4,577 bases of DNA from a virus. Its lineage: Duplodnaviria > Heunggongvirae > Uroviricota > Caudoviricetes. Shown here one piece after another: positions 1-4,577 of this stretch (positions are counted from its first letter, which is position 1; each line of letters starts with the position of its first letter). A program made the translations under genes and the position numbers. Location: the IMG/VR virus record IMGVR_UViG_2734482555_000008. One strand, written 5' to 3'. Below the pieces are notes generated by a model, which was given only the letters and a program-made list of their open reading frames with translations, had not been told where the DNA came from and searched no databases.

Positions 1-161
1 GCTTTGAACTCTTTAGAGTAACGTTGGGTTTTTCTGCTCATTATTAGCTCCTTCTGATGCCATTCTATTTCAGGAAGGAGTGTCCGTTAAACTCAGGCTA
101 CCTCAGGTTATTCGCTTCTGGGCATGGGCGGATCAACAAATGATAGACGGTAATGCAGATT

Positions 162-180
162 GTAACGCTCGCGGCGTTAC
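162..180. repeat. Inverted repeat GTAACGC-N5-GCGTTAC
   Basis: GTAACGC at 162..168 and GCGTTAC at 174..180, read directly. Lies inside the N-terminal coding part of the O-like gene. Confidence 0.6.
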
Positions 181-370
181 AAAAAGTGCAATAGATCGCA
201 TCACTTTTATGTCTGGTTTTGCTGATGCGTTAATTCAGGTTGGATGGCTGGTCGAAAATGACGGAGGGCTTTCTCTACCTAACTTTGAACGTCATAACGG
301 AAAAAGCTCTAAAAAAAACGGGCGGTTACAAACGAGCGAGTAACAAAAATACGCGAACTGAAACGAAAAG

Positions 371-389
371 GTAACGCTGCCAGCGTTAC
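371..389. repeat. Near-perfect palindrome GTAACGCTG-C-CAGCGTTAC
   Basis: 9 bp arms at 371..379 and 381..389, read directly. The same heptamer core recurs at 406..412 (GCGTTAC) and 18..23 (GTAACG), with degenerate copies at 323..329 and 338..344. Confidence 0.6.
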
Positions 390-414
390 ACAAACGGATC
401 AAAAAGCGTTACCA

Positions 415-432
415 GAGGAAGAGGAAGAGGAA
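415..432 (+). repeat. Tandem hexamer (GAGGAA)x3 encoding an acidic tract
   Basis: Three perfect GAGGAA copies at 415..432. Encodes the EEEEEE run in the linker of the O-like gene. Confidence 0.8.
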
Positions 433-788
433 GATCTAAATACTGATCTCCCCCTCGCCAAAAACGAGCGTCTAAAAAATTCGAGCCGGAGGCTATTGAG
501 CTGCCCGATTGGTTGCCGGAAACACTCTGGCATGAGTGGGTCCGGTTCAGACAGGCATTGCGAAAACCGATTCGAACGGAGCAGGGCGCTAACGGGGCGA
601 TACGGGAACTGGAAAAATTCCGTCAGCAGGGTTTTACACCTGAGCAGGTGATTCGACACAGCATCGCCAATGAATACCAGGGCCTGTTCGCGCCGAAAGG
701 TGTTCGGCCTGAGACGTTGCTCCGACAGGTTAACACCGTCTCGTTGCCGGACAGTGCGATCCCGCCAGGCTTCAGGGGGTAACGGACC

Positions 789-1574
789 ATGAAAAATATT
801 GCGACAGGCGGCGTTCTGGAACGCATCCGCCGACTGACCCCGCCACATGTAACCGCCCCATTCAGAACGGTAGCGGAGTGGCGCGAGTGGCAACTTGCTG
901 AAGGCCAGAAACGTAGCGAGGAGATCAACCGCCTGAATCGCCAGTTGCGGGTGGAAAAAATTCTGAATCGCTCAGGCATCCAGCCGTTGCACCGTAAATG
1001 CTCGTTTGCGAATTACCAGGTGCAGAACGACGGCCAGCGATACGCGTTAAGCCAGGCGAAATCCATCGCCGATGAACTGATGACCGGGTGTACAAATTTT
1101 GCGTTCAGCGGAAAACCTGGTACCGGGAAGAATCACTTAGCGGCAGCTATCGGGAATCGCCTGCTGAAAGACGGTCAGACAGTGATTGTGGTTACCGTGG
1201 CTGATGTTATGAGCGCCNNNNNNNNNNNNNNNNNNNNNNNNNNNNNNNNNNNNNNNNNNNNNNNNNNNNNNNNNNNNNNNNNNNNNNNNNNNNNNNNNNN
1301 NNNNNNNNNNNNNNNNNNNNNNNNNNNNNNNNNNNNNNNNNNNNNNNNNNNNNNNNNNNNNNNNNNNNNNNNNNNNNNNNNNNNNNNNNNNNNNNNNNNN
1401 NNNNNNNNNNNNNNNNNNNNNNNNNNNNNNNNNNNNNNNNNNNNNNNNNNNNNNNNNNNNNNNNNNNNNNNNNNNNNNNNNNNNNNNNNNNNNNNNNNNN
1501 NNNNNNNNNNNNNNNNNNAGTTTCAGGAGGATTTATGGCGAAACCTTTTACTCCCGAACAGCGGGAAGAACTGA
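789..1574 (+). CDS. DnaC/P-like replicative helicase loader (AAA+ ATPase), prophage replication protein
   Basis: ATG at 789 with AGGGGG about 10 nt upstream. The visible 143 aa include Walker A FSGKPGTGKNHLAAAIG and the DnaC-like N-terminal region (NRSGI..CSF.NY). The middle and C-terminus are hidden by N-block 1218..1518. The end at 1574 is only the first stop in frame if the N-block length is exact, and it would overlap the next gene by 40 nt, so the 3' end is uncertain. Confidence 0.85.
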   Translation: MKNIATGGVLERIRRLTPPHVTAPFRTVAEWREWQLAEGQKRSEEINRLNRQLRVEKILNRSGIQPLHRKCSFANYQVQNDGQRYALSQAKSIADELMTGCTNFAFSGKPGTGKNHLAAAIGNRLLKDGQTVIVVTVADVMSAXXXXXXXXXXXXXXXXXXXXXXXXXXXXXXXXXXXXXXXXXXXXXXXXXXXXXXXXXXXXXXXXXXXXXXXXXXXXXXXXXXXXXXXXXXXXXXXXXXXXXFQEDLWRNLLLPNSGKN

Positions 1575-1957
1575 AGACGCGAATTGTGGAACTCGTGCAT
1601 CAGGACGGTCGGGTCACGATTCGGCAGTTGTCAGATGAAACAGGTATCAGTCGTGCGTCTGTCGGTCGCTTATGCATAGAACTGGTCGCAAGTGGTGATG
1701 TATATAATTCTGGCTACGGCTTATTCCCGTCTGAACAGGCTCGCAAGGACTGGCAAAGCGCCCGCAAAAAACTCTCGAGAGTAAAGGTGAGGAAACCGGT
1801 TGTTGTTGATCCGGACCTTATCTGGTCATTACCTGACGGAGAAATACGCCGCTACGACAGGCGCCTGAATATAATCTGTCGCGAGTGCCGGAAGAGCGAA
1901 GCTATGCAGCGTGTACTGGCTTTCTATCAGGGTAATTTTCAGGAGGCGATACTGTGA
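1535..1957 (+). CDS. Hypothetical prophage protein with N-terminal winged-helix/HTH-like segment
   Basis: ATG at 1535 preceded by AGGAGG (1525..1530). The 140 aa ORF has even, protein-like composition. The segment RVTIRQLSDETGISRASVGRLCIELVASG resembles a winged-helix DNA-binding motif. Stop TGA 1955..1957 directly abuts the next ATG. Confidence 0.7.
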   Translation: MAKPFTPEQREELKTRIVELVHQDGRVTIRQLSDETGISRASVGRLCIELVASGDVYNSGYGLFPSEQARKDWQSARKKLSRVKVRKPVVVDPDLIWSLPDGEIRRYDRRLNIICRECRKSEAMQRVLAFYQGNFQEAIL

Positions 1958-2014
1958 ATGAAATTAGCTATCAGGCTTCAATTACCGCTGGCATTCGCAT
2001 CAAAGGAGAGGAGC

Positions 2015-2371
2015 ATGGAAATAAAACCAGAAGATGAGTTAAGCAATATCGTTTTATTTCCGGTAAAAGAGGATGACCCTCGTAATCAGGTTAATTTTCT
2101 TTATGAGCCATCGGAAAGACCATATTGCCATCACGCCTCTGTACGGGTTGACGAAAAAGAGCGTCAGGTCCGCTGTAAAATCTGCGGTGCGGTTGTGGAG
2201 CCGTTTGACTGGATGCTCTCTGTGGCAAAAAGAGAAACCAGACTGGCAGATGATGTAAGGCTATTGCGCCAGGAGGAACAGGAAAGGCGGAGAAATATAG
2301 AAAAGCTGATACAGATTGAGCGTAACGCGAAAGCGCGGATACGCAGGGCGACAAAATCCAGAACTGAATAA
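2015..2371 (+). CDS. Hypothetical zinc-ribbon protein with basic coiled-coil C-terminus
   Basis: ATG at 2015 preceded by strong SD AAAGGAGAGGAG (2002..2013). An alternative start is ATG 1958 (TGA-ATG junction with the previous gene, AGGAGG 1941..1946 at 11 nt spacing). Contains C-H-H ... C-x-x-C (PYCHHASVRVDEKERQVRCKIC), followed by a highly charged helical tail. Stop TAA 2369..2371. Confidence 0.65.
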   Translation: MEIKPEDELSNIVLFPVKEDDPRNQVNFLYEPSERPYCHHASVRVDEKERQVRCKICGAVVEPFDWMLSVAKRETRLADDVRLLRQEEQERRRNIEKLIQIERNAKARIRRATKSRTE

Positions 2372-2518
2372 TTAAATTTAGCACTGTTAAAAATTTAATC
2401 CTTAACCGGAGGGATTTCTGCACCCTCAAATCATCAGGAGACCACCCGAAAGGGCGGGGAGCAGTCACACATCTGTTTCCGATAGCCCCGTTCTAATGCT
2501 ACACTCTTTGATATTTTT

Positions 2519-3205
2519 ATGACCCCAATAAACATATTTATGACAGTTGCTGATTTCAAACGGCCCAAATTGGAGCTCCCAAACGGGGCAAACAAACTAC
2601 TACTGCACTCTTGCTGTGCTCCATGTTCCGGTGAGGTGATGGAGGCGCTTCAGGCCTCGGGAATCGACTACACCATCTTTTTCTACAACCCGAACATTCA
2701 TCCTCAGAAAGAGTATTTAATTCGTAAGGATGAGAATATTCGCTTTGCTGAACAACACGGCGTGCCGTTTATTGATGCTGATTACGACACAGACAACTGG
2801 TTTGAACGAGCCAAAGGAATGGAATGGGAGCCCGAACGAGGGATCCGTTGCACCATGTGTTTTGACATGCGTTTTGAGCGGACAGCGCTGTACGCCGCTG
2901 AAAATGGTTTCAGTGTGATCAGCAGTTCACTGGGCATTTCACGCTGGAAAAATATGCAGCAGGTTAACGACTGTGGGCGGCGAGCCGTCGCGCATTATCC
3001 GGGCATGGTGTACTGGGATTATAACTGGCGCAAGCAGGGCGGCTCGTCCCGTATGATTGAAATCAGCAAGCGCGAAAAATTCTATCAGCAGGAATATTGT
3101 GGCTGTGTGTATTCTCTGCGCGATACCAATCTACACCGCAAATCTCAGGGACGCCCTCTTATCAAAATTGGTCAACTCCACTACGGTAAAGAAGAGAAGG
3201 AGTGA
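2519..3205 (+). CDS. queH: QueH-like protein (DUF208 family, epoxyqueuosine reductase-like Fe-S enzyme)
   Basis: The 228 aa ORF carries the family-typical HSCCAPCS motif (codons from 2606) plus further conserved-looking Cys motifs CTMC and CGC. There is no recognisable Shine-Dalgarno before ATG 2519 or the in-frame ATG 2540, so the start is uncertain and may be leaderless or downstream. A weak promoter-like TTCCGA-N17-TACACT lies at 2477..2505. Stop TGA 3203..3205. Confidence 0.8.
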
Positions 3206-3226
3206 TTTTATGGGGCACCTTTCTGA

Positions 3227-3256
3227 TTGATTTCATATTGGCGAGGTAAGTAGAAT
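3227..3256 (+). promoter_or_regulatory. Putative sigma70 promoter (TTGATT-N18-TAGAAT) firing into the masked block
   Basis: -35 TTGATT at 3227..3232, 18 nt spacer, -10 TAGAAT at 3251..3256. Same hexamers as the promoter at 3764..3791. Hexamer match only, no experimental support. Confidence 0.35.
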
Positions 3257-3700
3257 GACTGCGGGTGCTTGAGGCTATCTGCTTCAGGCATGAACACCAA
3301 AAGGCAGATAGAGAAAAGCCCCAGTTAACATTACGCGTCCGGCAAGACGCTTNNNNNNNNNNNNNNNNNNNNNNNNNNNNNNNNNNNNNNNNNNNNNNNN
3401 NNNNNNNNNNNNNNNNNNNNNNNNNNNNNNNNNNNNNNNNNNNNNNNNNNNNNNNNNNNNNNNNNNNNNNNNNNNNNNNNNNNNNNNNNNNNNNNNNNNN
3501 NNNNNNNNNNNNNNNNNNNNNNNNNNNNNNNNNNNNNNNNNNNNNNNNNNNNNNNNNNNNNNNNNNNNNNNNNNNNNNNNNNNNNNNNNNNNNNNNNNNN
3601 NNNNNNNNNNNNNNNNNNNNNNNNNNNNNNNNNNNNNNNNNNNNNNNNNNNNNNNNNNNNNNNNNNNNNNNNNNNNCATCCTCAACGCACCCGCACTTAA

Positions 3701-3750
3701 CCCGCCCATCGCTGTGATCTCTCAGCGTTTCGGCGGGTTTTTTGTTGTTT
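3701..3750 (+). terminator. Rho-independent terminator
   Basis: Stem CCCGCC (3701..3706) pairs with GGCGGG (3732..3737). Inner stem CGCTG (3710..3714) pairs with CAGCG (3723..3727) around an 8 nt loop. T6 follows at 3738..3743, then a T-rich tail. An in-frame TAA at 3698..3700 sits immediately upstream. Confidence 0.55.
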
Positions 3751-3763
3751 ATTTCCGGTGAAT

Positions 3764-3791
3764 TTGATTCGCGCACCTTCGCAGATAGAAT
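3764..3791 (+). promoter_or_regulatory. Putative sigma70 promoter for the downstream small-gene pair
   Basis: -35 TTGATT at 3764..3769, 16 nt spacer, -10 TAGAAT at 3786..3791. Lies directly after the terminator and about 80 nt upstream of ATG 3873. Confidence 0.4.
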
Positions 3792-3872
3792 CGACTCACT
3801 TAAGTAGCGCGCAGGGAGAAGAGGGATGGACCCCGAACAGGGGAGAGCTATTTATCTGGAAGGATTCTGAAG

Positions 3873-4160
3873 ATGAAAATCGAAGAATTGCGTGAAATTT
3901 TTAGTGAAAATGGCCTCTATGCTGTGCGCGTTGAGAATGGAGCGATTGTCAGCCATTGCCGCATTAGATGTTTGCAATCTCAACAAAGGAAGAGCGGTGC
4001 TGTGTTATTTTATTTTTGTAATGGACTTCTGACGGACGGTTTTATTTTGCGTGAGGACGAATTTGTCACATCATTACGGGTTTTGAAAGAGATTGGTTTT
4101 AAGGCTGGTTTTCTGCTTTTGCTGAAGAATAAACTCATCTACAATCTTGAGCAGGATTGA
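3873..4160 (+). CDS. Hypothetical small prophage protein (95 aa)
   Basis: ATG at 3873 with SD GGAAGGA (3858..3864) at 8 nt spacing. Protein-like composition. Stop TGA 4158..4160. Confidence 0.65.
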   Translation: MKIEELREIFSENGLYAVRVENGAIVSHCRIRCLQSQQRKSGAVLFYFCNGLLTDGFILREDEFVTSLRVLKEIGFKAGFLLLLKNKLIYNLEQD

Positions 4161-4198
4161 ACTCCTGCTGTGTAACACCGTGCCACCGGAGAAAGCCG

Positions 4199-4552
4199 AT
4201 GGCACATATACAACTGGTCAAACAAACCTCTTCCGGATTACTTCTCCCGGCGACGCCGGAGAGTTGCGATTTTCTGCATCAAATCAAAATAGGTGAGTGG
4301 ATACACGCAGACTTTAAGCGTGTGTGTAACTACGCATTCCACAAGCGTTTTTTCAAACTCCTGCAACTGGGTTTCGATTACTGGACTCCGGTCGGTGGGG
4401 CGATCACGCCTCGCGAACGAAAACTGGTGTCCGGTTTCGTTGATTACCTGTGTGAATCAGTAGGCCGGGAACATACGCCAGCTCTGAGCGAAGCCGCAGA
4501 GCAATTGAGGTGTACTGGCAATAGCGGACACTACCATTTGTTCTTTTTTTAA
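4199..4552 (+). CDS. Hypothetical prophage protein (117 aa from ATG 4199)
   Basis: ATG at 4199 with GGAG (4188..4191) at 7 nt spacing. The ORF track's TTG 4157 start would overlap the upstream gene and lacks an SD. Stop TAA 4550..4552. Confidence 0.65.
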   Translation: MAHIQLVKQTSSGLLLPATPESCDFLHQIKIGEWIHADFKRVCNYAFHKRFFKLLQLGFDYWTPVGGAITPRERKLVSGFVDYLCESVGREHTPALSEAAEQLRCTGNSGHYHLFFF

Positions 4553-4577
4553 GCAGCCATCTGATGATATTTTTCCC

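Follow-up and report, generated by a model that had tools for sequence, protein, structure and literature searches.

A masked transcription unit in an IS600-bounded prophage remnant is very probably a complete hok/sok-family type I toxin-antitoxin locus

What is carried by a transcription unit whose two ends can be read and whose middle is a run of Ns? In this study, we analysed a 4,577-nt stretch of viral DNA (the window), in which a promoter and an intrinsic terminator enclose such a masked block. An earlier sequence-only reading had treated the content between them as an unknown cassette; it is indeed masked, but it corresponds to a known system. With high confidence, we assign positions 3227-3743 to a hok/sok-family type I toxin-antitoxin locus that is complete and of the hokD/hokW type; it lies in the IS600-bounded remains of a Rac/Qin-like lambdoid prophage. 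This locus is already known and annotated, and its exact allele is named hokD in RefSeq. Direct reading of the window located every sequence feature that the earlier reading had listed, each in its place. What that reading did not contain was the antisense RNA, and a minus-strand Sok-like RNA is the key feature of the locus; nor had it recognised its 8-bp hairpin and the sequence before the terminator as parts of the hok mRNA switch (tac, ucb and fbi).

The visible ends of the locus

The elements that can be placed on the window are as follows.

3227-3256, plus strand: promoter of the hok mRNA, -35 TTGATT (3227-3232), 18-nt spacer, -10 TAGAAT (3251-3256); from a consensus scan
3263-3743, plus strand: full-length mok-hok mRNA, nominally 481 nt with the N run, about 447 nt in the exact-match genomes
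3263-3274, plus strand: tac, GGGUGCUUGAGG, the 5' end of the mRNA; from folds and a shuffle test
3275-3311, plus strand: 5' leader hairpin of 10 bp (the 8-bp hairpin of the earlier reading); from folding, and part of the RF01794 consensus structure
3316-3322, plus strand: ucb, AAGCCCC, the upstream complementary box (anti-SD), partner of tac when the 5' fragment folds alone and of the mok SD in the full-length fold
3308-3384 (nominal), minus strand: Sok-like antitoxin RNA, about 77 nt; from alignment to the annotated K-12 sokC ncRNA
3353-3676, no strand: masked block; real content 289 nt, identical in five genomes
3680-3692, plus strand: fbi, CCUCAACGCACCC, pairing with tac over 12 bp with one bulged C (3686)
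3699-3743, plus strand: intrinsic terminator, outer stem AACCCGCC/GGCGGGUU, inner stem CGCUG/CAGCG, then U6 (3738-3743); from folding

The sigma70-like promoter TTGATT-N18-TAGAAT, which had been noted before, is present and begins 22 nt past the QueH stop codon (3203-3205). The consensus scan called exactly two promoter-like sites on the plus strand of 3100-3950, against 0.5 +/- 0.6 expected from shuffles. The predicted transcript start is G3263, and position 1 of the Rfam sok model (RF01794) aligns there. Across 50 distinct hok loci the -10 TAGAAT is nearly invariant and the sequence upstream of it is variable. In four of the loci (L021, L027, L062 and L071), the upstream sequence of the window is found with 9 extra nt before the -10, and TTGGCG serves as the -35 at a 17-nt spacing. 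The same TTGGCG lies only 7 nt from the -10 in the window (3238-3243), where TTGATT at 18 nt replaces it; this displacement indicates that the promoter of the window allele was remodelled by a small deletion.

The second promoter with identical hexamers, TTGATT-N16-TAGAAT at 3764-3791, was also found. The suggestion of co-regulated or duplicated cassettes did not survive the comparison of the two promoter regions, which are identical at 17/80 positions outside the hexamers, as in random sequence. Duplication was therefore rejected; the second promoter belongs to rem, and hok and rem are neighbours.

At the 5' end of the transcript, CTATCTGC (3275-3282) is complementary to GCAGATAG (3304-3311), as had been described, and folding lengthens this hairpin to 10 bp (3275-3284 with 3302-3311). 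At the other end, the intrinsic terminator expected after position 3700 was borne out by folding: a stem at 3699-3739 is followed by U6, and the fold of 3695-3750 has an energy of -22.8 kcal/mol (z = -4.9; 0/200 shuffles as good). A generic terminator scan with a loop limit of 8 nt did not call it because the loop of the hairpin is longer than 8 nt. Most relatives have a compact terminator, CCCGC-UUCG-GCGGG-U6. The window allele has a 23-nt loop insertion, CATCGCTGTGATCTCTCAGCGTT (3707-3730), which forms the extra inner stem and which was found among the 50 aligned loci only in L001 and L009 (alignment columns 458-480).

The unit thus bounded had been expected to give a separate plus-strand transcript of roughly 480 nt. 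It is a unit of its own, from promoter to terminator, but its real length is shorter by the amount discussed below. The TAA at 3698-3700, located between fbi and the terminator stem, had been called in-frame; the window has no readable frame there, and in unmasked relatives hok ends 75 nt before this TAA and in another frame. A small protein gene is carried, as had been considered, but its stop lies within the mask, 53 nt before the mask ends, and not at 3700.

Even with the interior masked, a whole-window Rfam scan matched RF01794 to 3263-3322 on the plus strand (model positions 1-58 of 157, E = 2.3e-10, 53.9 bits). This score is just below the gathering score of 59 because the alignment ends where the Ns begin and the rest of the model falls under the mask. 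On an unmasked relative, the model aligns end to end (positions 1-157) at 117 bits. No family other than sok was found in the E-value scan of the whole window, and in the relative the only other match was the snoRNA ceN48 at chance level (E = 0.62, 18.4 bits against a gathering score of 70). Since sok was the sole credible Rfam match in both, a riboswitch or another, free-standing sRNA gene was rejected. The option of a structured non-coding RNA was right about the structure, which is strong (z = -8.4 for the full-length mRNA), and wrong about the type of gene.

The masked interior in relatives of the window

The masked content can be inferred, on sequence grounds, from genomes that agree with the window at every visible base. 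The N run occupies 3353-3676 (324 N), and a second one lies at 1218-1518 (301 N). A Rac/Qin-like prophage of E. coli FDAARGOS_944 (L001) shares 99.9% identity with the window. Assemblies encoding exactly the DUF977 protein of the window, which has a lineage-specific substitution, were also retrieved. Two complete genomes among them (L092 and L093) match all three visible segments of the window exactly, i.e., 3952 visible bases with both IS600 junctions included. The interior is 289 nt long and identical in L001, L090, L091, L092 and L093, with all elements intact. In a joined-flank megablast both flanks occurred in only 2/5426 E. coli genomes, both of which had the 289-nt interior. The distance from tac to fbi is 349-379 in 74 relatives versus 414 in the window, and a search for a copy with the spacing of the window (flank-N{310,338}-flank) gave 0 matches in the genome, metagenome and viral contig sets.

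In the genomes that are identical at every visible base, the first N run is therefore 35 nt longer than the real sequence (324 vs 289 nt), and the second differs as well (301 vs 316 nt); the interior under the second mask is also 316 nt in Shigella flexneri L006. As both N runs differ from the real lengths, the masks do not preserve length, the coordinates within 3353-3676 are nominal only, and any argument about frame or length across the Ns of the window is unsafe. Below, interior positions are used; a nominal window coordinate is 3352 plus the interior position (left-anchored).

Interior 12-15, plus strand: mok SD, GAGG; read in unmasked relatives
Interior 24-26, plus strand: mok ATG; read in unmasked relatives
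Interior 32, minus strand: 5' end of Sok; from alignment to K-12 sokC
Interior 39-44, minus strand: sok -10, TAACCT; by homology
Interior 62-67, minus strand: sok -35, TTGCCT; by homology
Interior 66-71, plus strand: hok SD, AAGGAG; read in unmasked relatives
Interior 81-83, plus strand: hok ATG; read in unmasked relatives
Interior 234-236, plus strand: shared mok/hok stop, TAA; read in unmasked relatives
Interior 237-289, plus strand: 3' UTR of 53 nt with a GC-rich hairpin; read in unmasked relatives

ORF and covariance-model searches on the unmasked interior, which the sequence-only reading had suggested, were run on the relatives and returned ORFs of 70 and 51 aa together with the 117-bit match to RF01794. 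The 70-aa ORF is the mok frame, which consists of MLCTCRLASYMPKGKEKQA plus Hok, is in frame with hok and has GAGG 8 nt upstream of its ATG. This arrangement is homologous to K-12 mokC, whereas mok of plasmid R1 is out of frame with hok. Hok itself, an ORF in the 289-nt interior of the exact-match genomes, has 51 aa (MKQQKAMLIALIVICLTVIVTALVTRKDLCEVRIRTGQTEVAVFVDYESRK) and matches Pfam PF01848 (HOK_GEF) with 81.1 bits against a cut-off of 22; this Hok/Gef product is a predicted membrane toxin. The RefSeq/PGAP name of the gene between the two flanks in L001 is ‘type I toxin-antitoxin system toxin HokD’, and in phage Rac records mok, hok and rem are annotated at the same position as in the window.

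A TACG motif at the Tyr47 codon of hok (L001 4672-4675, masked in the window) is invariant in 50/50 aligned loci, and the neighbouring bases vary. A-to-I editing of hokB codon 29 by TadA, which turns Tyr into Cys, is reported together with a similar event in hokC, hokD and hokE at the cysteine numbered 46 (bioRxiv 10.1101/2025.08.07.668861). Tyr47 of the window-type Hok probably corresponds to this edited site of hokC/D/E.

Projection of the annotated sokC places the Sok-like RNA at 4485 to 4409 in L001, which equals 3384 to 3308 in the window. Its 3' 45 nt, comprising half of the terminator hairpin and the U tract, are visible at 3308-3352, and its 5' 32 nt are masked. The hairpin has a folding energy of -30.2 kcal/mol (z = -5.0) and is followed by CUUUUCUCU, the U tract lying at window 3308-3318. 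The single-stranded 5' tail, GCAAAGCAUGAAAU, is complementary to the region of the mok start codon. The putative sok promoter, TTGCCT-17-TAACCT on the minus strand, lies within the 5' region of mok, with the aligned 5' end of Sok 6 nt downstream. A generic sigma-70 scan of the minus strand did not call this promoter, whose -10 TAACCT scores 3/6; it is a candidate identified by homology to sokC only.

Folding of the mRNA and conservation of the unit

The names of the elements (tac, ucb, fbi and the metastable hairpin), the mechanism and the pairing of the two ends of hok mRNAs through tac and fbi are taken from earlier work (PMC9841398). In the window, tac has three mutually exclusive partners, all of which are visible: 3281-3291 (giving the metastable hairpin), ucb at 3316-3322 and fbi at 3680-3692. 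The tac-fbi pairing has an energy of -21.1 kcal/mol, and in a test that used the visible flanks of the window alone, 0/2000 shuffles of the 3' flank were as good. Conversely, of the 3882 visible 12-mers, none pairs better with the 3' segment than the one that begins exactly at 3263. The minimum free energy (MFE) fold of the full-length mRNA (L001 4364-4809) reaches -189.6 kcal/mol (z = -8.4) and includes the tac-fbi helix; in it, the mok SD region (CUGAGGC) pairs with ucb, and the mok AUG pairs with the CAU directly before fbi (3677-3679). For the isolated 5' 60 nt (3263-3322), the MFE structure equals the Rfam consensus, with a tac-ucb stem around the 5' hairpin. In the 3'-truncated mRNA, the 5' end refolds with the sequence immediately downstream, which matches the metastable hairpin of R1 (PMC9841398). 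The tac-ucb stem is absent from the MFE of this truncated form, where the metastable hairpin takes its place, and MFE alone cannot decide the active conformation.

To place these folds in a wider set, 80 hok loci were collected from viral contigs and 50 distinct units were aligned. The conserved stretch runs from the -10 to a point past fbi or the terminator, and the flanks are unrelated; a conserved block between unrelated flanks indicates that the hok/sok unit is a self-contained module. Of the pairs predicted from L001, 92% of the cells were paired in the 50 loci versus 33-41% with the partners slid, a percentage that is inflated because L001, the source of the structure, is itself in the alignment. 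Two pairs of the 5' hairpin showed compensatory changes (AU in 31 and GC in 16 loci; CG in 44 and UA in 5). The helix between ucb and the mok SD (helix 5) was paired in 99.1% of cells and the tac-fbi helix in 98.8%, the few variants of the latter falling on the bulged C or giving G-U. No two-sided changes were found in tac-fbi among the 50 loci of this subfamily, where the helix is nearly invariant. The tac-fbi helix is thus supported by conservation and the shuffle test and not by covariation.

Near-identical enterobacterial hok/sok was also present in a Xanthomonas pisi contig of 431 nt (L004), a Candidatus Scatousia MAG (L007) and a soil Proteobacteria MAG (L008). These occurrences most likely reflect contamination or mis-binning of those assemblies.

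Could the signals above be explained without an intact hok/sok locus that is expressed from its own promoter? The most serious challenge is that the locus is a relic which is non-functional in the source genome, for example through an insertion or duplication of 35 nt under the mask that disrupts mok/hok or sok. The excess of the N run over the 289 nt of all relatives would fit such an event, the surrounding prophage is decaying (IS600 truncates it on either side and indels split the replication-initiator gene), and the hok loci of K-12 are inactivated by IS elements or truncation. However, the second N run is likewise off in genomes identical at all visible bases, which points to a mask that alters length rather than to two private indels exactly beneath masks, and the interior is 100% identical, with every element intact, in five genomes of different lineages. 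We therefore consider a relic improbable.

The account favoured by the sequence-only reading, i.e., a plain small-protein gene or a structured non-coding RNA with its own promoter and terminator, free of antisense control and possibly co-regulated with the next cassette, is right that the promoter and the terminator are real and that their hexamers recur at 3764-3791. Nevertheless, Rfam, Pfam, PGAP and the homology to sokC, mokC and hokC all point to hok/sok, sok is the only credible Rfam match next to the chance-level ceN48 (E = 0.62), and the two promoter regions are unrelated outside the hexamers, so that this account is very improbable. Hardly any credence is left for expression of hok mainly by read-through from the upstream QueH gene in an early prophage operon, with 3227-3256 as a chance match to the consensus. 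It would be in keeping with the terminator scan, which found no terminator between the QueH stop (3205) and 3263, with the -35 region, which is unconserved among hok loci, and with the suboptimal 18-nt spacer of the window. Yet 50 loci whose upstream genes are unrelated have the -10 TAGAAT and the exact 5' end, GGGUGCUU, almost unchanged, the best partner of fbi begins exactly at 3263, and a transcript extended at its 5' end would not put tac at the 5' end, where the family model has it (PMC9841398). An intact hok/sok locus with its own promoter thus remains our preferred interpretation, and all of its parts are, as far as the sequence allows us to judge, present, correctly placed and intact.

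Prophage context, known systems and a possible role

Positions 1-104 and 4506-4577 of the window are the two ends of IS600 (IS3 family) in direct orientation, 100% identical to annotated copies. Between them lies a 4.4-kb prophage fragment (105-4505) with QueH, hok/sok, rem and replication genes, which is cut at the replication-initiator gene (105) and at a DUF1367 gene (4505). The window resembles an entire short-read contig delimited by IS copies, and the same IS600-bounded arrangement is present in the complete genomes L090-L093. In S. flexneri L006, IS600 is inserted 75 nt further into DUF1367. The replication-initiator gene (lambda O-like, window 80-782) is split into ORFs 80-343 and 513-782. 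Compared with the intact 789-nt gene of L001, an A run (311-312) is 2 nt longer and 10 nt are missing from a GAGGAA repeat (448/449); the gene, which IS600 truncates as well, is a pseudogene.

Downstream of hok/sok, the second promoter and a conserved leader precede rem, the 95-aa ORF at 3873-4160 being Rem (PF27490). Other prophages, and Qin of K-12, have the same -10 and leader (TAGAATC...ACTTAAGTAGCGCGCAGGG) in front of rem, and hok and rem are conserved neighbours in Rac, Qin (K-12) and the window-type prophages alike. Directly upstream lies a prophage-borne gene for QueH, an epoxyqueuosine reductase (2519-3205; Pfam 220 bits). The prophage of the intact relative also has four tRNA genes (Ile, Arg, Thr and Gly) downstream.

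Among the characterised systems, hokW-sokW of Sakai prophage 5 (the Stx2 phage Sp5) of E. coli O157:H7 is particularly close. Takada et al. (2021, PMC8621323) showed that it is a type I toxin-antitoxin system in which sokW counteracts HokW and which helps phage release on induction. The published hokW-sokW primers match our locus L032 exactly. Sp5 is likewise a lambdoid prophage; HokW is identical to the window-type Hok at 50/51 residues, with E50 in place of R50, and the unit from tac to fbi is 92% identical at the DNA level and agrees in tac, ucb, fbi, the mok frame and the sok region. Immediately downstream of fbi, the Sp5-type copies (L026, L029 and L032) diverge and have no aligned CCCGC...GCGGG-U6 hairpin, whereas the window has the terminator with its 23-nt loop insertion. 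Moreover, unlike that of Sp5, the window's copy lies in a 4.4-kb remnant that has no lysis genes, so the phage-release role cannot apply to it as such.

The hokD (relF) locus in Qin of K-12 shares the PGAP name, a near-identical hok coding region, an identical fbi and rem downstream, and its terminator is of the compact form. However, its homology to the window-type locus reaches no further than about 14 nt upstream of the hok ATG, and relBE replaces the promoter, tac, ucb, the Sok target, the mok start and the sok promoter, all of which the window retains. The hokC/mokC/sokC (gef) locus of K-12 aligns base for base with the window-type locus from the -10 to the 3' UTR, and mok is in frame with hok in both. 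Its sokC ncRNA is 59 nt long compared with the 77 nt of the window's Sok, in which an 18-nt insertion lengthens the hairpin, and K-12 hokC is cut by IS186 just past the coding region, which leaves it without fbi and the terminator. The hok/sok system of R1 is located on a plasmid and the window's locus in a prophage, but both have the same parts and logic, i.e., tac/fbi, ucb on the mok SD, a metastable 5' hairpin, mok-hok coupling and a Sok promoter inside mok (PMC9841398). R1 Hok and the HokW-type toxins have just 44% identity (PMC8621323).

These similarities suggest how the locus may work. The promoter at 3227-3256, which is of a constitutive type, would drive a mok-hok mRNA of about 447 nt from G3263 to the terminator at 3699-3743. 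In the predicted full-length fold, tac-fbi closes the mRNA, ucb sequesters the mok SD and the mok AUG is paired next to fbi. By analogy with R1 hok/sok and Sp5 hokW/sokW, this form would be stable and untranslatable; slow trimming of the 3' end would then remove fbi, whereupon tac would re-pair with ucb, freeing the mok SD and the Sok target. For as long as the unstable Sok is synthesised, it would bind there and RNase III would cut the duplex. If its synthesis stopped, owing to loss of the element, prophage induction or the shut-off of transcription by an infecting phage, mok would be translated, and hok with it by coupling, and Hok may then depolarise the inner membrane and kill or lyse the cell. 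The 3' processing, the cleavage of the Sok duplex by RNase III and killing on loss of Sok were shown for R1 hok/sok (PMC9841398) and in part for the 98%-identical HokW/sokW (PMC8621323).

For a locus in an IS600-bounded remnant that has no lysis genes, we infer that the likeliest role would be selfish retention of the segment or abortive infection. A more specific idea is that the 4.4-kb fragment stays in Shigella-type genomes since cells that lose it are killed by hok/sok, or that it even moves as a composite IS600 unit with its own addiction module; we regard this as unlikely. Several chromosomal hok loci failed to mediate post-segregational killing in earlier work, as summarised in bioRxiv 10.1101/2025.08.07.668861, according to which hok is over-represented in prophages and about 80% of Enterobacteriaceae genomes carry it. 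The family is among the best-studied type I toxin-antitoxin systems, and the presence of a member here matters little beyond annotation. Within these bounds, the pairing of the mRNA ends that defines the locus can be recognised even with its gene masked, and the window's locus represents the intact form of the truncated hokD of K-12.
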